DNA of 64,000 nt from Hormiphora californensis (lineage: Eukaryota > Animalia > Ctenophora). The DNA lies in assembly GCA_020137815.1 (NCBI GenBank), contig CM035356.1:4154001-4218000 (forward strand). Reading direction: 5' to 3'. Both the position numbers and the translations under genes were made by a program. The notes beneath the pieces were generated by a model. That model made no database searches, was not told the DNA's origin, and worked only from the letters and a program-made list of their open reading frames with translations. Of the stretch, positions 4,588 to 59,770 are shown piece after piece (position 1 is the stretch's first letter; each line of letters opens with the position of its first letter).

Positions 4588-6219
4588 TTACCAGATTAAC
4601 ATCCTAACTACCACAACCACCGCACTCATCATCACACTGGTACTAACACTCCCGGCACCAGATACTGCCAGGAACCCGACACAGTGCCAACAGTTAAACC
4701 GACTATCCGGATCAAACTGCTTCTTCAGCTCCTCCAATCTCTCCCTGTTCTCTCCCCACAGTTGATTCTCCCAGTCAGGTTCATTGGCAGCGGCGTGGTT
4801 GAACCCTGCCCCTGAATCAGTGAACACATCACGGAGTTTCTGGGCGGTGTTCTCAGCAAAGGTTTCCATTTGGAGAACAGCCTTTCTCATAGCGGGGTGA
4901 ACTGCTGTTTCGTTTTCTCCAACGGTCATCATGGCCCCACCCAGTATGTAGTTGAAGGTATAAAACCCGTTCACAGCGATCCATTTCAAAGTCTCCTTGG
5001 TGGTAGCAGCTTCGTTTTGAATGTAGTCGAGGGTGATGAGACGACTGGCAATATCGATATTCGCCTGACCAGTCTCATCCGTGGTCATGTCGTCTGGACC
5101 TCCCCGAGCCTCATAATACGATGCCCCACACCTCTTACTATAAACTGCCATGTTACCTAGGGCTAGTGCTCCTTTATAAAACTCATCATTGTTCAGTTCT
5201 TCCTCCGTACCCTGGTAGTAAAAAACTCCAGAACTCAGGGTCCAGTATCCTCCCCATTTGGTGTCCAAATTCTCAATAGAGTCAACCAGGTAATCAATCC
5301 ACTTGTAAACAGTCGTCATATCGTAGTTAGTTGCCTCAGATAAATCAGTAACATACCATAATATCTCACAAAATGGAAGGGTCTCGTGGAGTTGATAATG
5401 CACGGCTGTGACGACCCCAAATGTGCCACCTCCACCCCCTCTCAGTGCCCAGAAGAGATCCTCATTCTCACACTCACTTGCCTCAACCTCACTCCCATTA
5501 GCGAGGACCACCGTGAAATCTAGGACCTGGTCCACGCCCATCCCGTACATCCGGGCGGAAGCGGACAATCCACCTCCCATTAACCATCCACCCGCTGCCC
5601 CGACGGTTAACCCACCACCCCCAACCACGTGGTACTCAGACCCAACCTCGTTATAAACCTCCTTCCAGTTCTGGCCTCCCCCAACTTTAATAGCGGCATT
5701 GTAGGTTGTACCACACTTTGTATAGTTCCCTATCACTCCCTCATCGCTATACTTTACAAAGGACCTCATCCAGATAAGGAGTGCCCCAGCACCCATACTG
5801 GCCCCTGCGTAGTTGTGTCCGGAACTCTTCACCACCACTTGGATGTCGTGCTCATTGGCAAACTTGATCGCTTCAACTATATCATTTGTAGTTTTAGCTT
5901 CAACCGAATATGCAGGGATGTTCCAGCTGGCCTTATCACTGCACTTGTCTTTAGCGCAGTCACTATACTGCATGCATCTTCCCTCTCCCTCATCTTGCAG
6001 GGTATACGCAGCAAAGGCTCCCGTAGCGGAACAACTAGAACTGTAACTATCCGGATCACCAATATAGTGAAGGAGATCAGTGCTAGAGAGTTTAGTTTTT
6101 AATTCATCCCATTCTGCAGAGGTGGGCCAGCATGTTGAGTTGCTCGGCATACAGTAGTCGAATTTATCTCTGGCCTGGACCAGGGATAGAAGAAGAGACA
6201 GCCATAATAATAATAACAT
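4588..6219 (-). CDS. Secreted BBE-like FAD-linked oxidoreductase, intronless, probable GPI/TM anchor
   Basis: Signal peptide MLLLLWLSLLLSLVQA (ATG 6219); CMPSNSTCWP; FAD-attachment KSSGHNYAG; TVGAAGGWLMGGG; DLFWALRGGGGGTFGVV; BBE tail WGENRERLEELKKQFDP; hydrophobic C-terminus. Confidence 0.9.
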   Translation of the reverse strand: MLLLLWLSLLLSLVQARDKFDYCMPSNSTCWPTSAEWDELKTKLSSTDLLHYIGDPDSYSSSCSATGAFAAYTLQDEGEGRCMQYSDCAKDKCSDKASWNIPAYSVEAKTTNDIVEAIKFANEHDIQVVVKSSGHNYAGASMGAGALLIWMRSFVKYSDEGVIGNYTKCGTTYNAAIKVGGGQNWKEVYNEVGSEYHVVGGGGLTVGAAGGWLMGGGLSASARMYGMGVDQVLDFTVVLANGSEVEASECENEDLFWALRGGGGGTFGVVTAVHYQLHETLPFCEILWYVTDLSEATNYDMTTVYKWIDYLVDSIENLDTKWGGYWTLSSGVFYYQGTEEELNNDEFYKGALALGNMAVYSKRCGASYYEARGGPDDMTTDETGQANIDIASRLITLDYIQNEAATTKETLKWIAVNGFYTFNYILGGAMMTVGENETAVHPAMRKAVLQMETFAENTAQKLRDVFTDSGAGFNHAAANEPDWENQLWGENRERLEELKKQFDPDSRFNCWHCVGFLAVSGAGSVSTSVMMSAVVVVVRMLIW

Positions 6220-6442
6220 TACTAAAGAAGAATAGTTTGGGTTAAATATGTACACTCTGCAGATGTATAATTAGAAGAGAGTTATTTGAAAGAATGATGA
6301 ATTTATCAAAATATAGATTTTAAACTAAAACAGCTTTAGAAAAATAAAACATGCACAAAAGTTTGTTTTTGTAATCTGGATGTGTCGTCTGAAAAATAAA
6401 CAGTTCAAAAGTAGTCTCGCCAGGAGTAAAATAATGGTGTGT

Positions 6443-14024: not shown

Positions 14025-16931
14025 TAGTCCAGTAAAAGTTCGATTTAAAATCGGCATTTCTGCAAGAAAGCAAATTCCGGTTGATTTTGGTCAATTCGAG
14101 TACGCTGATCACGACTATAAACTTTTCGTGAACTTTTTCGTGGGGGAAAGTGGCTTAATTGGCCTTAATTGGCCAAAACTTAAAATGTGTCTAAAATTTA
14201 TTCTGCACAGCTCAAAAAATCGGGGAAAATTCACTGATTATCGGAAAAATATTTCCAGATTTTATTTGTGTCGAAAATAGGCGGAATTGGCCTAATTGGG
14301 CTTAAGGGTACACCGACCGAAATTTTTTGTCGAGTGCAGGGCAATCTCTCACCGTAGGGTTGTAGGCCATGCCAAGGAGACCTCAAATATGCAATTTGAG
14401 CTCTCAAGTCGAATTCATATTTTTGCTACAGCTGTTTAAAAAATGTCCTGTAAATTCGTTTTTGGCATCCCAAAAAAATTTTTTTAAAGATAGGAGCATG
14501 AAAATTTGGGGATTTGAAGAGGACATGAAGGTGAATAACCACAAAAAATTTTTTTGCAATCCGAGCTGATTTCCGGTCCTGAGATGGATTTCTTTTTTTC
14601 CACTTTAACGCCCTATTTGGCAAAGTTCCGAAAACATGTGAAAGCTGTAAATTGGTGAAAAGTTGCGTCTAACGATTATCTAAGTGGCCATAAATTTTGG
14701 GCGTATCCTTATTTGAGATAAGCTGAACAGAGTTTTTTTTGTGAAAGCCGTCATTTCAGAAATAAATAAATTCCCTGTATCTCAAAAACGGCTGATCGTA
14801 GAGACCTGAGACTATGCTTAAACGATTCAGAAGGTCCGATTTTGGGGGGGTCTTCTGAGAGACATTTTGCTCCTACTTCAACCGTTTTTGCTGTAATTGC
14901 GAAAAACAAAAATTCATCTTCGCCATCGTGGATTTTTTGTGATTTTGTTTTTGGTGATTATAGGGACCCATATGGACCAAATAGTGAAGGAATTAGCTTG
15001 TTACACATTTTTCCATCGTTTCGGTCCTTTCCTAGCCAAAATTCCCTAATTACAGGATATTGGAGTTTAGCTTTTGCCCTTTTCATAGAATTTGTTTATC
15101 GCAGTTACAGCAAAAACGGTTGAAGTAGGAGCAAAATGTCTCTCAGAATACCCCCCCAAAATCGGACCTTCTGAATCGTTTAAGCATAGTCTCAGGTCTC
15201 TACGATCAGCCGTTTTTGAGATACAGGGAATTTATTTATTTCTGAAATGACGGCTTTCACAAAAAAAACTCTGTTCAGCTTATCTCAAATAAGGATACGC
15301 CCAAAATTTATGGCCACTTAGATAATCGTTAGACGCAACTTTTCACCAATTTACAGCTTTCACATGTTTTCGGAACTTTGCCAAATAGGGCGTTAAAGTG
15401 GAAAAAAAGAAATCCATCTCAGGACCGGAAATCAGCTCGGATTGCAAAAAAAATTTTTTGTGGTTATTCACCTTCATGTCCTCTTCAAATCCCCAAATTT
15501 TCATGCTCCTATCTTTAAAAAAAATTTTTTGAGATGCCAAAAACGAATTTACAGGACATTTTTTAAACAGCTGTAGCAAAAATATGAATTCGACTTGAGA
15601 GCTCAAATTGCATATTTGAGGTCTCCTTGGCATGGCCTACAACCCTACGGTGAGAGATTGCCCTGCACTCGACAAAAAATTTCGGTCGGTGTACCCTTAA
15701 TTGGGCTTGATTACTGGAATTTAAAGTTTATTCTGCATAGCTCAAAAAATCGGGAAAAATTCACTGATTATCGGAAAAATATTTTCAGATTTTATTTGTG
15801 TCGAAACTAGGCGGAATTGGCCTAATTGGGCTTAATTGGGCTTGATTACTGGAATTTAAAGTTTATCAAAAATGGATTTTATATAGCTTAAAAAATCGAG
15901 AAAAATAAGCTGATTATCAGAAAAATACTCTTTGAATTTATTCTTGTCTCAATTAGACGGTAGAGCTAATTAAAAAACAATTAAATCACCCAATTGGTGT
16001 TGCGCAACATAATATGAGCCTCAGGAATGTAAAACTGAACTTTATAAGCTAATTCCTTCACTAATGTGTCCCCAAGGGTCTCCCCTATCTAGTAGGGTCA
16101 GAGGGGTATATAATGTGGCTTGAGAGGTGTCTCCAAAATGCCGATTTTTACGATTTTCAGTTTCTCGCCCACAGCACATGCAGTGTGCATGCACAATATC
16201 CCGGAAATGAACATGTTGCACCTCGCACAGAATGTTAGGGTTTCCTATTGTGTTAGGGGAGACCCTTGGGGACACATTAGTGAAGGAATTAGCTTATGAA
16301 GTTCAGTTTTACATTCCTGAGGCTCATATTATGTTGCGCAACACCAATTGGGTGATTTAATTGGTTTTTAATTAGCTCTACCGTCTAATTGAGACAAAAA
16401 TAAATTCAAAGAGTATTTTTCTGATAATCAGCTTATTTTTCTCGATTTTTTAAGCTATATAAAATCCATTTTTGATAAACTTTAAATTCCAGTAATCAAG
16501 CCCAATTAAGCCCAATTAGGCCAATTCCGCCTAGTTTCGACACAAATAAAATCTGAAAATATTTTTCCGATAATCAGTGAATTTTTCCCGATTTTTTGAG
16601 CTATGCAGAATAAACTTTAAATTCCAGTAATCAAGCCCAATTAAGCCCAATTAGGCCAATTCCGCCTATTTTCGACACAAATAAAATCTGGAAATATTTT
16701 TCCGATAATCAGTGAATTTTTCCCGATTTTTTGAGCTATGCAGAATAAATTTTAGACACATTTTAAATTTTGGCCAATTAAGGCCAATTAAGCCACTTTC
16801 CCCCACGAAAAAGTTCACGAAAAGTTTATAGTCGTGATCAGCGTACTCGAATTGACCAAAATCAACCGGAATTTGCTTTCTTGCAGAAATGCCGAAATTT
16901 GGCCTATTTTTTTAGAACTTTTACTGGACTA
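14025..16931. mobile_element. Large foldback element (host of the nested element at 14306-15696)
   Basis: Left arm (14025-14305 plus 15697-16087) is the reverse complement of the right arm (about 16254-16931). Terminal TAGTCCAGTAAAAGTTC. Internal tandem duplication of about 130 bp in each arm. Confidence 0.8.
14306..15696. mobile_element. Kolobok-like TTAA foldback element, diverged relative of 696-1972, nested in the outer foldback
   Basis: Arms of about 597 bp with a spacer of about 196 bp. GGGTACACC termini. TTAA at 14302-14305 and 15697-15700. The opposite arm of the host shows the empty site with a single TTAA. Confidence 0.9.
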
Positions 16932-23206: not shown

Positions 23207-24330
23207 ACCAATTTGAATCCAAAACTACATTTCTGTATGTGTATATTCGTGAATCGTGCGCCCCTCATGCACATTCTTAAAAACGTACCCGCAAACTGCA
23301 AAGTAGGACAAACCTCCATGCTGCGGCCTTACACATGGGCTAAATTAAAAATTCCCACCCACAATGGTCGCAACACGAACTCTCATACCCACCAGGACAC
23401 ACCCTGGGGGCTGGGCATTTGAAAATTGAACTCCTGGTGATAATCAATTCCGATCGCGAACTGCTGAGGCCCAGAGGTAATATCATCATCACAATACATT
23501 TTATATTCCGCTTAATGCCTAAACATTCATTCACGTGGGAGTTAAACTTTGCCAAAATCTTGTCAAAAGACAAAAACTTGTCAAAAATCTTGACAAGCCT
23601 TGCTTTTTTAAAATGAGGTGAAAACGAGGGGGGGGGCCAATATCGGCCTTAAAATAAAATATATAATAAATTATACTGTAGAAATCAATGGAATCAATAA
23701 ATTATTGTGGAATTAGTCCATACGATATAAATATTCATCAGCGTCACTTGCGGCTGCCTTGCCCCTGCCCCGATATCCCCTAATCGATACAGTTATTGAG
23801 CGAACCATCGCAAATGATAAGCGCAGTCTAAGATACCGAATACAGTCCTGGCGCTCATATCCAGTTTTTGAAGATTTTCGGTGGGCCAACTGATTTGATT
23901 TGGAAAAGGATAAAAATCGATATATTTATAAAGACAATATCCCGGTTGGCTCCTATTGACGGAGTGTCAATATCGACGGAGCGCTTACACCTCAAAATAC
24001 TCTAAAAATTCACACACAGACAGTTCTCACACACTACGGACAAACAGACTAATACAGTATATTTTTAATAGAATAAACAAAATCTAATATGGCTACTATA
24101 ATAGATAATATATTGATTATTTCCCCCTCCCTAGCCAACCCCCCAAAATTCTTGTTTGTAAATGTCTTGTAATCAATTATGTGATTAGATTCGCGACTGT
24201 GCGATTGCTTGTTGTATAGTTTCAACTCTTCAACACCACACCAAAGAAATAAATAATTTGAAGTCCATGAGATAGGAGAGATTGATCTAAAGTTTAGAAA
24301 GTAGGTGAAGTCAATAGCACAGCCGCGAAT

Positions 24331-27300
24331 TTACGAATTTGGAATGTTATTCCAGAGATAATCTTTGAGCTTGGCCACAAAGGCATCATGAGAATCTAGG
24401 CATCGTAGGTCATGCGGAAGGTTATTCCATTTCACATGGATACGGTAAAAATAACTATGCTTAAAAGCGTCAATATTAGGGTTATGTGTGCAAATGATGT
24501 CTGTTTGGTCCCGGTTTGTCTGTTGTCTAGTTGTACGCCTGTCGTGTCTGTCAGGGATGTATTTGTGAAGGAACATTGGAAGTTTTAGGGATGAAGATCC
24601 GTAGAATATCTTATGAAACAGTTTTAAGTCATTATAAAGGAACCTTTCGGTAATAGGAAGAATCTTTCTTTGTTTAAGTTTACTGACATACGTTTTCCAA
24701 TCATAGCTGAGCTCCATTTCATTATTTATCCATTTTAATGCACGTTTTTGGAGCTTTTCGAACTTTTCAATACTAGAGGCTGAAACTGGTCGCCATATCT
24801 GGCTGCAGTGTTCAAACAACGAACTAACAAGACTGACATAAAGTGTTCTCCTCTTTAGAGGGGAATCAACCAGAGCACTAGTTCTCTTGACTAGGCCTAA
24901 CCTCTGAGACGTTTTAGAAATTATCATGTTTTGGTGTTCTAGAGGCGATAATTTTCTATTGGTGATCACCCCCAGGTCAGTTTCATTTGTACATTGTTGA
25001 ATCTCACTACTTCCTAAGTAATATTTTAGGTTAACAGGCTTATGCTTCAAGGTACATCTAAGAAGTTTACATTTATTAGGGTGGAACTTCATTTTATTTT
25101 TCACACTCCACTCAATCAATCTATCAATATCAGGCTGGAGACTATCATTTTCATTCTTAATCGTCCTCCAGATTTTTAGATCATCTGCATATAGCTTTAT
25201 ATTGGTTTCTCCTTCATCCCCGATGGCCTCAACTATATCATTTATAAATAGAACAAAAAGGAATGGGCCGAGGATGGATCCTTGAGGGACTCCACTCTTA
25301 ACATTAGACCATTCCGAGAATTCACCATCTAATGTTACTCTCTGTCGACGTCCAGATAAGTACGCTTTAAGAAATTGCAACATTTTACCGTTTATGTTAT
25401 ACTGGACTTTAAGTTTTTCAAGTATGACATCGTGTGATACGCTGTCAAAAGCCTTTTGAAAATCAAAATATATAATATCTGTTTGCAAGTGTTGGTTTAA
25501 ATTTATTGCTAGCTCACAGTTAAACTCGATCAGTTGGGTCGTACATGACTTCAGTGGTACGAACCCATGCTGATGAGGTGTAACTTTCTCCAGACAAGCC
25601 CTATACAGGCGCTCTCTAACCAACTTTTCGAAGACCTTCATAATTAGACACGTAAGAGAAATCGGTCTATAATTCTCTACATTAGACTTATCTCCTTTTT
25701 TGTGGACTGGCACAACATTTGCATTTTTCCACTCAGTTGGAATAGACCCTTCATCAAAAACTTTGTTAAAAATTAATACTAGTGGATATGCCAATGATTT
25801 GTGACATTTTTTCAAAACTATACCGTCTATATTATCTGGGCCAGTGGCCTTGGATGCATCTAATTTTCTTAATATATCTACAACTTCATCAAAGTGAAAA
25901 GTTTCGTTGTTAAAATCATTATCATGGTTTCTATCAAAATCAATTGGTGTGCTATACGTACTGGCTTGTGTGAACTGTTTACAAAAAAAATCATTAAACA
26001 TTTTGCATTTTTGTTGACTACTTTTTTCAGAGTTATCCTCGTAATGAACTATATCAGGGACTCTAGTGCTGCTAGTTTTTGATTTCACATGTTTAAAAAA
26101 CTTTTTGGAAATTGCAGCTGTAGAGGCAGACTCATCAATGGAGGAGAGTTCTAGAAAGTGTGTTTCTTTCTCCCTTGACGCTTTTCTGTACTCTGCCTCC
26201 ATACAAGTAAATACATTTTTTAGGGAAACATCATTTGGAAACTTCAGAGAAGCTTTTCTAGAATTATCCATTGACCTTTTTAACTGTCTCGACTCATCAT
26301 CGTACCAGGGTGGTTGAGATCCTATTTTTACATTAACTAATGGTACATGGTGTCTTAGGGTAATATCTAATTTTGATTTAAATTTCTGAAGAGATTGTTC
26401 GGCCCTGAGGTGTTTGAATTCCTTAGTCCAGTCATACCGAATCAGTCCCTCATTAATCGCATCCCAATCAGCTTTCTTGTAAGAAAACTTTTTAGCCGTC
26501 TTAAACTTGGGTCTTATCTTTTTGATTTGCACCTCACATTTAATAGTGAAGTGGTCAGATTTGACTAAACAATTTTCTTCTACCGATACATTGGAAAAAC
26601 ACGAACTATTATTTGTGAGAATTAGATCTAATACATTTCCATCCCTGTGTGTTGGTGCGTTTATTAACGAACTCATACCCAGAGATGTAAAAAGGTGAGC
26701 AAAGCCTTCGTGTATACTATTGCTCGATACTGGGTCATCCCAATCTTTAACCGAGCTTAGATTGAGATCCCCGATGATTGCTAGGTTTTTATATTTTCTA
26801 GATAGGCGTGTGTAGTACCGCTCAGTTTCTTCAAGACAATCTGACCCCGAGTAGTCATACCTGTAGAATGTTGAGATACATATCGGGGTCAGGTTTTTTG
26901 ACTTGAGCAGTATGGTGACAATAGGCAGATTTACCTTGTCCTTTACCTGATCAACTTCAATACCCATGTTATTCTTACATAGAATCATAACTCCTCCCCC
27001 ACCCTTTTTATCATACATTTCCATGTCCCTTTTAGTTCTATCTTTTCTGTATATTGTATAGAACTGATCGGACACTAATTCACCATCATTGACATGCTTG
27101 TTCAACCACGTTTCATTTAATACTACAATTTCTGGCTCATAAGTAAACAAGTATGCTCGGAGATCAGAGAGTTTAGATACTTGAAACTGGGGCTGATCAC
27201 CACTAATTGATTGCATATTTATGAGACCATTAACGTTGCAGTACACCACACTAATTTTTGTTTTTGGTTCAGTAGGCCCAGGATTTACAATACTGGGCTG

Positions 27301-27723
27301 GTGGATAACAATAAGTGCTTTTGCTAGACTCGAAAGAAAGATTAATAGTACGACTAGTCGACACCTAACTATGATTTTGGAACAGGTGTTCCCTATTTTC
27401 CCCATACTTTTGAATATCACCAGGGTTAACACACAATTAGCATACCAAATGTAATGCTGGTTGATACTCTTACCGACTTCTTCTCGGCCTGTTTCCATAC
27501 ATAGTTCTCTACAGGACAGAGAGTAAGTACATCTGGACATAGAGCCTAAAAGAATAAGTATTAGTATACTGTAACTTAGGTAGAGAATCAAATGAAATGG
27601 TGATATTGATGATGTTTGTCTGTACTGTCGGTCAAGGGTTTTGTTAGTAAACATTTTTCTTTTTCCACCCCTCCCCCCTGCAAACCTCCCAATAGTTTGT
27701 CTGTACTGTTCAGCACTTATCAT
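24331..27723 (-). CDS. LINE ORF2: APE endonuclease plus reverse transcriptase, open frame
   Basis: CNVNGL, LNETWL, GDLN, LDLILTN, SDH (APE); NYRPISL, QHGF, DFQKAFD, GVPQGS, YADD (RT). Likely start MISAEQYRQTIGRF at 27723; frame open to 27795. Confidence 0.95.
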   Translation of the reverse strand: MISAEQYRQTIGRFAGGRGGKRKMFTNKTLDRQYRQTSSISPFHLILYLSYSILILILLGSMSRCTYSLSCRELCMETGREEVGKSINQHYIWYANCVLTLVIFKSMGKIGNTCSKIIVRCRLVVLLIFLSSLAKALIVIHQPSIVNPGPTEPKTKISVVYCNVNGLINMQSISGDQPQFQVSKLSDLRAYLFTYEPEIVVLNETWLNKHVNDGELVSDQFYTIYRKDRTKRDMEMYDKKGGGGVMILCKNNMGIEVDQVKDKVNLPIVTILLKSKNLTPICISTFYRYDYSGSDCLEETERYYTRLSRKYKNLAIIGDLNLSSVKDWDDPVSSNSIHEGFAHLFTSLGMSSLINAPTHRDGNVLDLILTNNSSCFSNVSVEENCLVKSDHFTIKCEVQIKKIRPKFKTAKKFSYKKADWDAINEGLIRYDWTKEFKHLRAEQSLQKFKSKLDITLRHHVPLVNVKIGSQPPWYDDESRQLKRSMDNSRKASLKFPNDVSLKNVFTCMEAEYRKASREKETHFLELSSIDESASTAAISKKFFKHVKSKTSSTRVPDIVHYEDNSEKSSQQKCKMFNDFFCKQFTQASTYSTPIDFDRNHDNDFNNETFHFDEVVDILRKLDASKATGPDNIDGIVLKKCHKSLAYPLVLIFNKVFDEGSIPTEWKNANVVPVHKKGDKSNVENYRPISLTCLIMKVFEKLVRERLYRACLEKVTPHQHGFVPLKSCTTQLIEFNCELAINLNQHLQTDIIYFDFQKAFDSVSHDVILEKLKVQYNINGKMLQFLKAYLSGRRQRVTLDGEFSEWSNVKSGVPQGSILGPFLFVLFINDIVEAIGDEGETNIKLYADDLKIWRTIKNENDSLQPDIDRLIEWSVKNKMKFHPNKCKLLRCTLKHKPVNLKYYLGSSEIQQCTNETDLGVITNRKLSPLEHQNMIISKTSQRLGLVKRTSALVDSPLKRRTLYVSLVSSLFEHCSQIWRPVSASSIEKFEKLQKRALKWINNEMELSYDWKTYVSKLKQRKILPITERFLYNDLKLFHKIFYGSSSLKLPMFLHKYIPDRHDRRTTRQQTNRDQTDIICTHNPNIDAFKHSYFYRIHVKWNNLPHDLRCLDSHDAFVAKLKDYLWNNIPNS

Positions 27724-27841
27724 TGTGGGGGTTTTGGATTTTGGTTTCGGCACTAAGGGTTCACGGAGGGTCTGTTGGTTGGGGTAATAAAACAACTTCT
27801 CCCCCCAAACATATATATTATCAATGCAGCAAAATCAGCAA

Positions 27842-28698
27842 TCAGCGTAAAACTTCGTTATAAATCAGGTCAGTTAAGACCGAGTAACCATATTTATTCA
27901 AATGCACACCATCCCTACAATAAAGTGATGAGTTGAAAAACAAATCACGCGTTAGGAAATCAGCCATCCAACTCACAAAACTGCAATTCATGAGTTGGGA
28001 CACACAATTTACAATTTTGTTGTACATGGTAACATTAGAGACCGTATATGAGAAGTCTCCTCTCAGGGGAAGGACATGTGTAATCACTATCTCCGGGTCC
28101 CCATACAACCGTCTAATCTGCCTCACTAGGTGGCATAGTGCCCCTTGGAGTCGGTTCTTCGTTGCGCTGTTCTCACAGAAGTTCTTATCAAACCTAATAT
28201 CGTTCGTACCATAGCAGATAACAACCTTCTCAAAGTGTGCCTCAGGGTGGCTCTGGTGGTACCTGGACAGCTCTTCAAACGCTGTAGTACCCTTCCATTT
28301 CGAATGGGGCTTCACAATCCTTGCACCCGACACAGAGATATTCTCAAGCCCCCGGATCTCAGGTACCCATTTGGACAGGCTCGTGCCCAAGAGCAGAGTA
28401 GTGGGGCTCCTAGGGTTGACGGCATGTCTCAAAGAAGGGACCACTCCAGAAGGGGTAGGAAGTAGGGGTGGTCTAACGGAGGGTACCGGCACGTTCGCCA
28501 CTGGGGGAGGAGGAGGAGGATCCGGTTGGTAACCATCCCCATTAGGAGGAGGAGGGGAATGCTGGACTCCTATTGTTGCCCTCGATGGTGGGGAGGGCAG
28601 TCTCCGTGGGCTAGGTGGTGGTGGTGGTGGTACCAGATCTGTTGAGGGGAGCTGTGGGGTTGCTCTTCTGAAGGACAGAGCATACCGCTTCTCAGTAG
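27842..28698 (-). CDS. LINE ORF1 remnant: Pro-rich linker plus SGNH/GDSL esterase domain (now in frame with the CRE RT)
   Basis: LLLGTSL (block I), SVSGARI (II), CYGTNDI (III), DGVHLN (V). Confidence 0.85.
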
Positions 28699-31619
28699 AC
28701 TGTTTCAGTGTGTTCTGAAATTCTCTACCAAGTCCGCCTGATGTTGACATGACAAGCGGAGTGAACACCGCCTTCTCAACCTGGAGAACTCGTTGCAGAT
28801 AAGCTTTCTTCTTCTCAGTTTCATGCTTCTCATAGGTCTTCTGTATACTCTGGTTGGCATTAGACTTTACCCTTGGATTAAAAATCCTTACGTCAAAATA
28901 GGTACAGTCTAAGCTTGACCAGAGTCCACGGGTTCTGATGTCAAGACGAGCCCCGTCTGCTGTGATGGTCCCAGCTGGAAGGGACGTCCCCCGAACGTTG
29001 AGAAGGTGAGGTTCGACCTTGGTATCGAGGCCGACAGTGCTAAGCTCTTTCGCAATAAAGTCTCTCACGTTGTCGTGCCTGAAGTTAACAAATCCTCCAA
29101 GCTTGCAGGAGATAGCATGATCGATACTGTTAGCTTCTCCGCATGTACACTGATCTGGTAGAGGTTCGCCAACAAGGGGGAGATTGTACCTAGCCGAGAT
29201 AGCGTCGAACCATTCCTGTCGGTTTAGAGTGAAGTTAAGAGATTCTAGTGGGAGACAAGTTAGCCAGGAGGATGCACCCTTTTCGGCCAGGAGATCGAGG
29301 GTCCTCTTCTCTTCTGGTGTCGATTTTGATTTAATTTGATCGATTGCCGTCTGATGTTGTTCGTTTTTCGTTCGACGCACAATGAGTTTGTTCTCTGAGT
29401 TTTTGACATCATCTGCAGTAAACGTATCTTCCTGGTTCAGCACAGCTGCAGACAGATTTTCAGTCATGAGTTTGGAGAAATAGTACTCGCTATCCGATGT
29501 AGCGACGGGGTTTTGAATCCCGAGTCCTCCAAATCTCGCTGGAAGAGAGAAAACTGATCGAAGTCTCTCGTTGATAACAGGTTGTCCAGTCATAGAAGGG
29601 ATGAGTTGCTGCAGAATTGAATCCTCAATCGGGCCCAACTGATCAGAAATGCCTGGAGTCGTTCTCATAAGATACGACCACCGTTTAGATACTCCCATGG
29701 TGTAGGCTGTATAAGCAAGCTGAGGCTCACTGTTTGCAATCTCCGCAAGTGATGTTATTTCTGCAACCCACTTATCTACCTCTTTCTGAACAAACTTGTC
29801 CTGACCTTCCTTAGTTCCGATATACGATCCCAGGTAACGTTGCCCTTCGGTGGTAATGTTAACATCAGGGAAAAGGGCTTTTGCCTCGTCCTCCAGGTGA
29901 GGTTTAACAATCAACCAAGATTTTCCTGGATTGGGTAGGTAGCCGTATTCAGGTCCCTTCAGTTTGATTTTATCCCACCACTGATTTACAGAAGCCAAAG
30001 TCCCTCCGCCCAGGCCATCATCGGCATAAAATATCTGGGTAACCTGTTCAATGTCCTTCAATGAAATTACAAGGGGCATAAGGCAGCTGGCGTACATAAA
30101 CATGGCCGCAGTATCACCCTGGGTCGTCCCTTCAGCAGATTTAATAATTTCATGATTAGTTCCATCGCATAGGAATAAGTTAGATGTTAAACCATATGTA
30201 TTTTTTAAATAATGCTCAAACTCAGGGCAAACTGTATTTAATATTATTTAGAGCAGCATTTCGATTTAAGGAATTAAAAGCATTACTTGCATCAATTAAT
30301 AGCACACACTCACATTTCCCGGATTCAAACAGTTCTCTCGCTGCATGCACGGCAGCCTCTACTCCGCTCTCCAGCCCAGCACATAGCTGTATCGGGGCGG
30401 TAGATTCAACAATATTAGGTTTCAGTGAGCGGGTAATCACCTTGCCGACTAGCCGGCGTAAGACTTCACCAATCCCGATTGGGCGGATTCCAGATGGTTT
30501 TTTGCTCAGAGGGACAAGTCTAGATGCAACGTATGCCGAAAGGTGAAGAGGATTAACTACTTCCGTAGCTAATTTGATAGCGAAAGTTGATATGGCCTGT
30601 GCTAGTTCGTTTGAGGCGGGGCTGAGTTTTTTGGACAGGAGCATATGTTTCCAGAGATCAGAGTCCGCTCCTGACGGGCCGCCTGAACCAGTTAGAGTTT
30701 TAGCAGCTTTGAGAACTGAATTTGCCGATATATGAGAGAATGTACAATCAATTTTGGGGAAAACTGGGCCCTCCAACAGTGACGATGAGGCTGCTGGTGC
30801 AGGATGTTTTTTGATCAACTCTGTAACAACTTCTGGTGTAACAGGAACTGGAGCAACATCGCTATCACGGATTGCACGTAGAGCCTGTCCTACCTTGCCA
30901 TGTAGCATTAATCTAGTGAAGGCCTTGAGGACATTTCGAGCCTTGCCTTCCCTACTAGGCAATCTGCTCTGAATTACACGTCCTTCACGGAGTAGAGATT
31001 GAAAATCTCCGGTGCGAAATAATTCGAGTCGTCGTTCAATAGCTATAACATGGTCCCTTGTTTTACTGGTAGCGGATGGTTTTTGAAGTACTAGCGGGAA
31101 AAGTAGCATCAGAAGCATGATTGCAATTGTACTGTTCTGGCTGTTTTTATTGAAAGAGTTCAGAACATTAGCCACTTCATGCACAAAGTCCTTCCCAGTT
31201 TTCCCGGATGGTACCTGGCACAAATTTGCTCTCCAGAATACAACCTCGTGATACGCTTCGCTCACCTCACGGTGGTGCTCTGATTCGTACTGTTGTTCTG
31301 GATCGGTGTGATCGATGGGTAGAGATGTAGATGTTGAGGCGATGTTTTCCTCTAGCAAGGCAAGTAACTGTGGTTTCAATAGGTTTGTTCTGTAGGGAAT
31401 ACCACGTTTTCGGAGCTCCTGCTTGATCTCATCCTTCTTCATCTCAAATTAATTTCTTCATCTCAAATTAATTTCTTCATCTCAAATTAAATGAGGTGAA
31501 ATGAAAAAAATAGGGTGCGCGGCGCTATTTTCTATTTGCGCGGCGCTATATTTTGATTTGCGCGTTGCAAAACGCGCAGCGCGCTGCATTTTTTTGAAAA
31601 AAATCCCAGCGCTGAGTTG

Positions 31620-34085
31620 TGATTTCGTTGTCAATCAGCTGAAACTTAAACACCCTGAGCCGGCTGATTCAACTTACTTCCTTCATGGCCCTGTGCTGCC
31701 CACCAACGACGTGATATTCTCCAGTATTACCCCTGAATCAGTGCTCCGTGCTGCCAAACACCTTACGGGATCAGGTGGTCCGTCTGGAGCTGACGCTGGA
31801 CTCTGGAAACACATTCTGCTGTGCAAGAAGTTCAAACCCAAATCGTATGACCTAGCACGGGCGATTGCGACCCTTGCAACCAAACTGGCAACTGAAAAAA
31901 CTGATCCCATGTACCTTGAAGCATTCGTTGCTAGCAGACTGATTCCCTTATCGAAAAAGCCAGCAGGTATCAGGCCGATCGGTGTGGGTGAAGTGATTCG
32001 AAGGCTTGTGGGGAAAGTTGTTGTAACGGTCCTAAAACCTGACATTATAGAGGCAACAGCCCCAATACAACTGTGTGGGGGACTGAAGAGTGGTGTTGAA
32101 GCTGCAGTGCATGCTTTAAGAGAAAAATTTAATGATGATAAATGTGAATGTATACTGTTAATTGACGCGTCCAATGCCTTTAATTCTTTAAACCGAAAGA
32201 TTGCTCTAAGCAATATTGATTATTTATGTCGTGATTTTAGCATGTATTTATCTAACACTTACGGCTTGCCAGCCAAACTATTCATATCTGATGGAAATTC
32301 ACATGACACCCTACTATCAAAAGAAGGAACAACACAGGGTGATACCACTGCCATGCCCATGTATGCATGTGGCCTTATGCCATTAGCTAATTCTCTCCGT
32401 AACATTGAAAATTCATTAGATGATGAACTCTTTCAGATCCTCTATGCAGATGATGCAGGTGGCGGAGGCACTCTAGCCATTATCGAGAAGTGGTGGAGCA
32501 AGGTGAAAGAGAGGGGTCCAGGCTTTGGATACTACCCTGAGCCTTCGAAAAGTTGGCTGATTGTGAAAGAAGACAAGGAGGAAAGAGCCAAGGAACTGTT
32601 TCCAGATGTCAACATAACAACTGTTGGTCACCGTTACCTGGGTTCCTTCATTGGGAGCGAGGATGGTATGAAGGAGTGGGTGAAGAATGAAGTGAAGACT
32701 TGGGTCGAGGAGATAGAACAACTGAGCGACATTGCCCGCAACGAACCCCAACTAGCCTATTCAGCCTACACAATCGGGTTGAGTAAGAAGTGGAACTACT
32801 TGCTGCGGACAACACCAGGGATCGCTACAGAACTAGAGCCCATCGAGAAGGCAATCAGAGAGAAATTCCTCCCAGCTATCACAGGACAACCATTCATTCC
32901 TGATACGCTACGATCCATAATGGCACTTCCTACGAGAATGGGAGGGCTGGGTGTCGAAAACCCCTGTCACATGGCTGACCTGGAGTACCAGAACTCGCTG
33001 AAAGCGACAGAAGAACTTCAGAAGGCTATCCAGAAACAAGACGTAGAATACATACCGAATCCTGAGACTGAGAAAGCCATAGCCCTCAGCATCAAAACTG
33101 GCAAAGCTAATTACCACAAGGAATGCAGGGAAAAAATCGTTCAGTCAATCAAGCCAAGAGAGGCGAGGAACCTTGATCTACTCAGCGAGAAAGGGGCATC
33201 AACATGGCTCACTTGTCTACCCCTAGAGTCATTGAAGCTCACACTCAATCGCCAGGAGTTCTTTGATTCAATCTCAGCACGATACGATCTCCCACTAGTG
33301 GGACAGCCGAGAGCAACACAGTGCGTTTGTGGAGAGGAAAACAGCATCGATCACTCCATGTCATGCAAACGCGGGGGATTTGTTGCGGTCAGACACGATT
33401 GCGTTCGAGACTTTCTAACTGCGGAGCTGGACAAAGTGTGCTACGACACTAAGGCTGAACCCCACCTACTGGAAGTTAGAGGAGCAAAACTACCACCTGG
33501 GACCATTACAGAGGATGGAGCTCGCCTTGACATTCGAACGAGGGGATTCTGGGGACCAATGGACTGCACCTATTTTGACGTAAGGGTTTTTAACCCAAGG
33601 GCACAGTCTAATGAGACTCAGGATATCCCTCAAACGTATATCAAGCACGAGGAAGGGAAGAAGAAGAACTATCTACATCGCATTCTCGAGGTGGAAAAAG
33701 CTTCTTTTACTCCCCTCGTTATGTCAACGACCGGTGGACTTGGTCAAGAGTTCAGCAGAACTCTGAAGCAACTCGCAACCAAGAAATCACGGAAAACTGG
33801 CTATACCTACCAGGAGTGTATTCGATACCTCCGTGTTCGTCTATCATTTTCAATGGTTCGCTCCATAACTTGTTCTATTCGGGGTTACAGAGGAAAGAAC
33901 AAGAATGATGGCTCTTCATCAGATCTGTACCATACATACTAGTCTTTAACTGTTGCATGTATTTTATGTGATTTTCTTCGTGTAGCCAGTCAGGCAAAAA
34001 CAATTTATATATACTATTATTGACATTGTTAGGCCAGATGCATGTGGCTTCTTTTATTTTCCTCGATTTTTTTCTTTTTTTTTCA
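31620..34085 (+). mobile_element. CRE-clade non-LTR retrotransposon B, 5'-truncated; uninterrupted RT-RLE frame to 33942
   Basis: Collinear paralog of element A from VVNQLKLKHP onward, with the same RT/CCHC/RLE motifs. 3' UTR has an AGGCC..TGGC hairpin, CCTCG and a T-rich tail like element A. No TSD found. Confidence 0.9.
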
Positions 34086-34104
34086 TCACAAACTCGTGGA
34101 AACT

Positions 34105-58184: not shown

Positions 58185-59770
58185 ACAGGGAGGTAGTTAT
58201 AGTGGGCTAGGGGCGGGGTGTGTACTGTTTAGTGGGCTGTGGGCCGGTAGGGAGGTAGTTAGTGGGCTGGGGAGGTAGTTAGTGGGCTGGACAGTAGGGG
58301 ACAGGGAGGTAGTTAGTGGGGTAGGGGGGAGGTGTTTACTGTTTAGTGGGCTGTGGGCCGGTAGGGAGGTAGTTAGTGGGCTGGGGAGGTAGTTAGTGGG
58401 CTGGACAGTAGGGGACAGGGGTATTTTTGGGGGGGGGGGGGAGGGGTTTCGTTTTTTGGGCGTGGGCCCGGAGGGAGGTATTTTTGGGCGGGGGGTGTTA
58501 GTGGGGGGGCATAGGGACGGGGGTAGTTATGGGGTAGGGAGGTTTTTACTGTTTTTGGGGTGGGGGCCGGGAGGGAGGTAGTTAGTAGCTGGGGGGGTGT
58601 TAGTGGGCTGGACGTAGGGGACAGGGAGGTAGTTTTTTGGGGGTTTGGGGAGGGTGTTTCTTTTATGGGTGTGGGCCGGTAAGGGGGGATTTGGGGGGTG
58701 GGGAGGTTTGGGGGGGACAGGGGGGGCGGGAGGTTTTTGGGTAGGGGGGGGGTTGTTTCTGTTTATGGGCTGGGGGCCGGGGGGGGAGGTAGTTATGGGC
58801 TGGGAGGTATTGTGGGGGGAAGTAGGGGACAGGGAGGGAGTTGTGGGGTAGGGGGGGGGGTTTTTTGTTTTTGGGCTTGGGCCGGTAGGGAGTATTAGGT
58901 GGGGTGGGGATTTAAGTTAGTGGGCTGGGCAAGGGGAGGAGGATTAGTGGGTGTGGGGATTTTTTTTACTGTTTTTTGGGGGGGGGCCGTAGGGGGGTAG
59001 TTAGTTGGGGCTGGGGAGGGAGTTGTGGGCTGGACGTAGGGGCAGGGGGTAGTTTAGTGGGCTAGGGGGAGTGTTTACGTTTAGTGGGCGTGGGGCCCGG
59101 GAGGGGTAGGGGGCTTGGGGCGGGAAGGGCTGGCCAAGGGGACAGGGGGTATTTTGTGGGAGGGGGGGGTTTTACTTTTTGGGGCTGTGGCCGGTAGGGG
59201 TTTGTTTTGGGCTGGGGAGGTATTATGGGCGGACAGTAGGGGGGCAGGGAGGGAGTTTTTGTGGGGGGGGGGGGGAGGTGTTTACTGTTTGGGGCGTGGG
59301 CCGGTAGGGGGGGTAGTTTTTGGGCGGGGGGGTGTTTGGGGGCTGGACTAGGGGCAGGGAGGGAGTTGTGGGGTAGGGGGGGGGTTTTTTTGTTTTGTGG
59401 GGGTGGGGGGTGGGGGGGTATTGGGGCTGGGGGGGTAGTTTTGTGGGGGGGACGTAGGGGGGGGAGGTGTTAGTGGGGTAGGGGGAGGGTTTTTTGTTTT
59501 GTGGTTGGGCCGGGAAGGAGTAGTTTTGGGCGGGGAGGAGTTATGGGCTGGACATAGGGGCAGGGAGGTAGTTATGGGGGAGGGGGAGGTGTTTTTTATT
59601 TTTGGGGTGTGGGCCCCTTTGGGGGGGATTATGGGCTGGGGGGAGGTATTGTGGGGTGGACGTAGGGGGCAGGGGGGTATTTTGGGGTAGGGGGGGGGGG
59701 GGTTTTTTACTGTTTATGGGCTGGGGGGGGTAGGGGGTTATTTTGGGCCCAGGGGCCGGAGGGGGGGACA
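58185..59770. repeat. G-rich tandem repeat (GGGAGGTAGTTAGTGGGCT units) decaying into low-quality sequence
   Basis: Clean units at 58.19-58.42 kb, then increasingly noisy copies. Confidence 0.8.

Follow-up and report, generated by a model that had tools for sequence, protein, structure and literature searches.

A ctenophore retrotransposon headed by its host's spliced leader: probable reverse transcription of trans-spliced element RNA in Hormiphora californensis

Element A, a retrotransposon copy without long terminal repeats (non-LTR) in a ctenophore genome, that of Hormiphora californensis, starts on the minus strand with the 3' end of its host's spliced leader, joined without a spacer to the start codon of a single open reading frame (ORF). 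It lies in a stretch of 64,000 nucleotides (GenBank assembly GCA_020137815.1, contig CM035356.1, positions 4,154,001 to 4,218,000), hereafter the window, in whose numbering coordinates are given. Judged from the sequence, the head of A probably stems from an element RNA that was trans-spliced and then reverse-transcribed into the leader. An initial annotation of the window had proposed as much, and the proposal gains support from leader-headed copies of the same family and from two distant relatives. The extension of the pattern from one copy to a family and to three lineages is well supported at the level of DNA. Published work is cited by PubMed Central number, from excerpts of the papers. 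The 5' end of A is composed as follows.

31489..31501, no strand: target-site duplication on the 5' side of A, 13 bp, with an exact second copy at 23611-23623
31481..31488, minus strand: outermost leader piece, the last 8 nt of the leader, from the sequence and the published leader
31456..31480, minus strand: duplicated junction material (ATGAAG, 13-nt leader end, ATGAAG), from period-19 identity, translation and contigs of runs X1, X3 and X6
31443..31455, minus strand: 13-nt leader end joined to the start codon, identical to the published leader end

Read 5' to 3' on the minus strand, the target duplication (31501-31489) is followed by an 8-nt leader end (31488-31481), ATGAAG (31480-31475), a 13-nt leader end (31474-31462), a second ATGAAG (31461-31456), a further 13-nt leader end (31455-31443) and, at 31442, the start codon of the ORF; this is exactly the order that had been claimed for 31501-31442. 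The 13-mer, AAATTAATTTGAG, had been called a ctenophore leader end, and by eye it equals the final 13 nt of the leader given for Hormiphora californensis in PMC8527503. The same source describes a mostly conserved AATTTGAG end common to the leaders of Mnemiopsis and Hormiphora, and a leader on at least 56% of Hormiphora Iso-Seq reads. The leader piece ends exactly on the leader's last base, 0 nt from the ATG of A. Under a third-order Markov model of the window the 13-mer has a probability of 8e-8 per position, and the 13-mer followed by ATG is found at two window sites against 0.01 expected. The last ATG was also rightly taken as the ORF start: the intact related proteins P0001-P0003 begin no more than four residues from the same methionine, so that A is full length at its protein start and has no 5' untranslated region (UTR). 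Its upstream units encode two MKKLI-stop mini-ORFs.

The 13-bp target duplication is exact (23611-23623 and 31489-31501) and has no other site in the window, even with one mismatch, which delimits element A to 23624-31488. Since the leader piece lies inside the duplication, the leader belongs to the inserted DNA and came in with the cDNA. Two bases of the duplication adjoining A also match the leader, and the outermost leader piece measures 8 nt, or 10 nt with this microhomology. The units form a period-19 array at 31435-31490, with period-19 identity over 31435-31471. Contigs of X1, X3 and X6, from two samples, span the tandem in parts, together with the target duplication, and an X3 contig (31442-31490) requires two full 13-mers; the tandem is thus no assembly artefact. 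Concerning the origin of the triple unit, the initial annotation had offered slippage or a relic-leader phenomenon. The three units represent a tandem duplication at the junction, in keeping with the former, while recycling of a relic leader is ruled out because each unit repeats A's own first six coding bases (ATGAAG). Leader pieces begin at the edge or the centre of a 10-nt self-complementary stretch in the leader end (leader positions -13 to -4). Such a sequence may promote stalling at that point.

Other copies of the family were read in contigs of four sequencing runs (two samples) aligned to positions 30900-31750; 24 of 42 loose ends were listed, and the statements below on junctions refer to these 24. 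Three distinct 5' junctions at the ATG occur among them, all headed by leader. The first is that of the present copy (X1, X3 and X6). The second has a longer leader piece, by eye identical to the published leader over 17 nt in X3 and 16 nt in X6. The third belongs to a diverged copy (X1 and X3, with 11 differences in 96 letters in X1), where an unrelated T-rich flank is followed by a 10-nt leader end, a 7-nt near-copy of the leader end without its AG, and the ATG, an arrangement compatible with recycling or with duplication plus mutation. The length of the leader piece therefore differs between copies of family A, in two of the three junctions the ATG directly follows the leader's final base, and at least two of the three lie outside leader genes. 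Rather than continuing into an element-specific 5' sequence common to the family, the case against trans-splicing raised in the initial annotation, the junctions run into leader or into unrelated flank. An allele empty of A, which that annotation had proposed to check, is found in no contig of X3, and the X3 bin depths sum without one (52.0 of 52).

Depth on A exceeds that on the junction contigs 8- to 10-fold in sample S1 and about 64-fold in X6, a ratio that is not a copy number. In the X5/X6 data for 30900-31750, A and a neighbouring element, B (see below), have about 60-80 times the depth of the flanks in sample S2 and about 9 times in S1; the contrast may reflect a difference in copy number or an enriched library. 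Some contig evidence was discarded. Branching at the ATG, read from contigs ending at 31442, was dropped, as a single-nucleotide polymorphism at 31412, 31 bases away, explains these ends; the depths at the long X3 junction (arithmetic giving about 72) were left unused, since two copies would account for them as well as many copies with just the leader part in common; and an X5 loose end at 31468, with a likeness of 85%, defied interpretation and was not considered. Six RNA runs containing 5-16% of the words were given no weight.

Similar heads might arise if reverse transcriptase (RT) jumped from element RNA to free leader RNA during insertion, producing chimeras at the DNA level only. U6-L1 chimeras provide a precedent for such template switching, and the triple unit of A, together with the 7-nt near-duplicate of the leader end in the diverged copy, has the look of RT-type stutter. 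Template switching nevertheless gives no reason to strike a splice site and a start codon repeatedly, as the two exact junctions out of three in family A would demand. Chimeras of the U6-L1 kind are, moreover, normally a small minority of copies, whereas every listed junction is leader-headed. We consider this explanation very unlikely.

Distant relatives extend the pattern beyond family A. A metagenome scan yielded 28 loci, of which 22 stand outside the count for want of a placed N-terminus and six were counted. Two of the six, L001 and L004, have an 8-nt leader end no further than 60 nt from the ATG, against an expectation of 0.01 and with local shuffles giving 0.002 and 0.003, and a motif scan of all 28 gave sense matches only in these two and within the coding region of L008. 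By eye, both resemble the published leader well beyond 8 nt. L001 has an intact ORF of 1045 aa, preceded by about 46 nt resembling the whole published leader (10 of the first 12 nt identical, the last 13 identical except for one extra A) and then a 28-nt spacer; L004 has an intact ORF of 1074 aa, about 26 nt of leader and a 12-nt spacer. Leader-to-ATG spacers of 0 nt in A, 28 nt in L001 and 12 nt in L004 are as expected of short 5' UTRs of host type. A 10-mer that flanks the near-complete leader of L001 on its outer side and recurs after the 3' UTR is a candidate target duplication (shuffle p 0.03); a 10-mer was reached in 0 of 245 other windows. Among the proteins of A, L001 and L004 identity is 38-44%, at distances of 1.9-2.2 substitutions per site, and the leaders of L001 and L004 differ from that of A and from each other in the manner of species variants. 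As a separate observation on L001 (332-362), its spacer opens with a strong donor-like GT hexamer, and the stop of a short upstream ORF overlaps the main ATG.

A tree of 113 proteins, rooted at the midpoint, places A, B, L001, L002, L004 and Mnemiopsis-named proteins in a 38-tip clade with support 0.999; among the first 120 proteins, 21 shorter than 900 aa were left out of the trees. Leader heads are present in three of the four DNA loci with a placed start inside this clade, A being the ascertainment case, and in none of six loci outside it (L003, L006, L007, L029, L030, L031). Branching among the three leader-headed lineages has support of 0.2-0.6. Genome contigs gave no locus in a narrow alignment and 17 in a broad one; among the six examined, L032 and L043 have no clear N-terminus and L037 repeats L030. 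Viral contigs held no relative of A. Several megabase contigs filed as prokaryotic metagenome-assembled genomes (L029-L032, L035-L038, L043) carry eukaryotic retrotransposons and microsatellites; these are probably host DNA in bins.

Some of these data weigh against trans-splicing followed by reverse transcription. The listed loose ends include no copy in which an outron and acceptor precede the ATG, and since the other copies were read on their 5' side, a master copy in a leader gene may exist. The duplication of L001 is weak and contains one indel. In both L001 and L004 the leader is followed directly by GT, like the donor of a leader gene. L002, inside the 38-tip clade, has no leader motif. 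At about 393-415 of L002, where AATTTGAG is absent, a short AT-rich stretch starting GGTTT and ending GAG follows unrelated sequence and lies one base ahead of the ATG; it may represent an acceptor region or the leader of a different taxon.

The GT in particular bears on a read-through of the SLACS type, in which a master copy would sit in a leader RNA gene at or just after the exon end, be transcribed from the leader promoter, and pass the leader to off-target progeny. In trypanosomes, CRE elements have their insertion sites in leader genes, and transcription of SLACS reportedly begins at +1 of the interrupted gene (PMC12278014, PMC3447711); ctenophores possess hundreds of leader copies (718 and 491; PMC8527503). 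The long X3 junction, of whose 78 loose letters 30 were listed, could also be a whole short leader variant. The initial annotation was right that the leader of A is followed by ATG rather than GT, but this fails to exclude leader-gene read-through, given the SLACS route and the GT in L001 and L004. On template switching, that GT could be the start of the leader intron.

Several results nevertheless count against a leader-gene origin. At least two of the three junctions, as well as element B, lie in non-leader flanks, so that the endonuclease is not strictly leader-specific. Three distant lineages would each need a leader-gene master at a different offset (0, 12 and 28 nt), and in the case of A the insertion would have had to bring the ATG precisely to the end of the exon. 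Acceptor sites, too, commonly show AG-GT. Rfam returned no family on L001 or L004, a result that is uninformative if ctenophore leader RNAs are not in Rfam. Overall, we judge read-through from a leader gene to be improbable.

It is also conceivable that the leader-like piece is the element's own heritable 5' end, captured once long ago, or a chance match in AT-rich sequence. The sequence is indeed AT-rich and partly palindromic, and one ancient event would pass to all copies of family A. Against this stand the low per-position probability of the 13-mer given above and a second copy in which 17 nt match. The L001 and L004 leaders, which vary like species variants at about 40% protein identity, argue against a single old capture and fit repeated renewal from the host leader. 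Either version has, in our estimation, only a slight chance of being correct.

Reverse transcription of a trans-spliced RNA predicts the combination encountered here, namely an exact leader end, varied leader lengths and, across three lineages, short spacers (0, 12 and 28 nt). A source copy would be transcribed from an upstream promoter, and the spliceosome would attach the capped leader at an AG adjoining the ATG, by the known host pathway. Target-primed reverse transcription would then enter the leader and usually halt within it. Two backward slips of the cDNA end on a 2-nt microhomology, or slippage of the DNA after insertion, may have given A its three units; the cDNA would have joined the target on another 2-nt microhomology, with decay of the copy later. 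A bolder proposal, which we regard as doubtful, is that a clade of ctenophore retrotransposons gave up promoter, 5' UTR and ribozyme, that the T-rich leader end retained with its terminal AG serves as the element's own trans-splice acceptor, and that the 5' end is renewed from the host. On this proposal any read-through transcript would be cleaved and given a new cap precisely at the ATG, so that a master copy bearing an acceptor would be superfluous.

The remainder of A and its surroundings comprise the following features.

28701..31442, minus strand: main part of the single ORF of A, with a SAP/HeH-like N-terminus (weak) and RT, CCHC and putative restriction-like endonuclease motifs
23893..28700 (about), minus strand: nested CR1/L2-type element interrupting A, from Pfam Lipase_GDSL_2, Exo_endo_phos and RVT_1 and from its junctions
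23713..23892, minus strand: C-terminal end of the ORF of A with stop codon; the translation resembles the C-termini of P0001 and P0002
23624..23712, minus strand: 3' UTR of A, whose GC-rich end runs into the T-rich start of the target duplication
23611..23623, no strand: target-site duplication on the 3' side of A, exact copy
31627..34070, plus strand: element B, a sister-family copy truncated at its 5' end and facing A head to head, from its ORF and RVT_1

The ORF of A is 69-76% identical to the intact P0001 and P0002. It is one RT-bearing ORF broken by a frameshift and the nested element, intact relatives measuring 964-993 aa. Pfam matches to A fall below the cut-off (RVT_1, E 2e-4; SAP, E 7e-3); RVT_1 is above it in P0002, B, L001 and L004. 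A, B, P0001, P0002, L001, L004 and P0012 share the motifs C-x-C...H...C-xx-GG...RH, followed by R-x-D, D-V and E-x-x-K, which we read as those of a putative restriction-like endonuclease (RLE); no Pfam model gives a match to it. With a C-terminal CCHC motif and this presumed RLE, with no apurinic-endonuclease-like (APE) domain and with an exact 13-bp target duplication, A has features of the CRE group. We accordingly use the label CRE-like as an assumption drawn from these motifs, the trees having been built without named CRE references; none of these (SLACS, CRE1, Cnl1) is among the protein matches to A. A sequence search of the PDB gave no useful match. The copy is dead, through a frameshift near 30235 and the nested 4.8-kb element, and measures 3057 nt without the latter. 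At its 3' end A has no poly(A), but a GC-rich stretch and T residues. The nested CR1/L2-type element, which is probably young, has an intact APE-RT frame of 1154 aa (24331-27795) and is 5'-truncated in its esterase ORF1; the GDSL-esterase fragment of ORF1 (27842-28700) is fused in frame to the ORF of A.

Leader-tagged retrocopies as such have precedent. Dinoflagellate retrogenes are marked by relicts of the dinoflagellate spliced leader (DinoSL), the AG of which can accept another leader (PMC5585692). As in A, leader DNA at the 5' end marks a trans-spliced origin and multiple leader pieces are possible; the typical feature, a leader 3' end in the DNA at the 5' boundary of the retroposed unit and ending at the splice junction, is present in A. 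In contrast to A, however, the DinoSL cases are host genes retroposed passively, with repeats arising by recycling (PMC5585692). A is itself a retrotransposon, in an animal and without a 5' UTR, and its repeat spans the first six coding bases; stacking of relicts by recycling does not describe its triple unit, in which coding bases are repeated. Closer in kind are six leader-containing transposable elements of Schistosoma mansoni, likewise animal retroelements with a genomic leader exon, which were suggested to be trans-spliced and retro-transcribed, with chimeric assembly allowed for (PMC5832876). For A, the junction, the target duplication, several copies and three lineages are resolved.

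SLACS, CZAR, CRE1 and CRE2 resemble A in having a single ORF with RT and restriction-like endonuclease, a target duplication and an RNA starting with the leader, the last of these presumed for A (PMC12278014, PMC3447711). They are site-specific in leader RNA genes, generally carry poly(A), and obtain their leader from the interrupted gene (PMC12278014, PMC3447711), whereas A has a non-leader target, no poly(A) and its leader piece inside the duplication. A fixed insertion site in leader genes does not apply to A and a second copy, whose flanks are non-leader. NeSL of nematodes is, like A, an animal element with a restriction-like endonuclease and a tie to the spliced leader; unlike A, it targets leader genes, groups with Utopia and has a protease domain (PMC4640811); no protease domain is seen in A. 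Cer1 of Caenorhabditis elegans resembles A as proposed here in that a retrotransposon RNA is given a spliced leader, but it is an LTR element with SL1 only on its 2.4-kb spliced mRNA and none on the 8-kb gag-pol RNA (PMC3315495), so that the leader does not enter new copies that way. No leader-headed retroelement of a ctenophore appears in the literature searched (listings and abstract openings, with most subscription journals outside), and none in the excerpts of PMC13188248, PMC4558846, PMC6875170 and PMC7986045.

Element B is sister to the A group in the tree (support 0.995). It has no leader because its front is missing, and in the contigs loose ends before 31627 continue its ORF. It was inserted about 110-125 nt beyond A. 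Just before its truncated 5' end (31613-31627), some 10 nt look inverted relative to the sequence after its 3' end (about 34080-34095), with no direct duplication; an X6 contig that shares the junction of A departs at 31613, which suggests an allele without B. A was inserted in a repeated sequence (31502-31626 and 23520-23610) resembling a miniature inverted-repeat transposable element, with short internal inverted and direct repeats, and several contigs of other copies match 31533-31597. The target duplication of A holds, on the strand opposite to A, a donor-like hexamer of a kind found in 0.4% of window 13-mers; it was noticed post hoc and left unused. Elsewhere in the window, long nested inverted repeats of foldback type, 99-100% perfect with arms of 250-390 nt, occur at 691-1977 and 14051-16895. 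A single-frame gene of FAD-binding, berberine-bridge-like type occupies 4588-6255; its best match is 62% identical, in a cluster that includes a Bolinopsis microptera protein, its named relatives are in Bolinopsis and Clytia, and others are in protist sets. The best match points to a ctenophore host, as do the Mnemiopsis-named elements in the clade of A. The stretch 58200-59770 is a degenerate tandem repeat in units of about 105 nt, G-rich and strand-biased.

How promoter-poor RLE non-LTR elements obtain defined, translatable 5' ends has been explained in few cases, such as the leader-gene read-through of SLACS. R2 makes its 5' end by read-through plus a ribozyme. Should the leader of A be no more than a side effect of trans-splicing, which the host applies to most RNAs, its value would lie mainly in marking full-length copies. 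If the origin proposed here is true, host trans-splicing would be a further solution for the 5' ends of RLE elements, and would link targeting of the SLACS type with leader tagging. Some of the hundreds of genomic "leader copies" counted in ctenophores may, we suggest, be the heads of retrocopies rather than leader genes.
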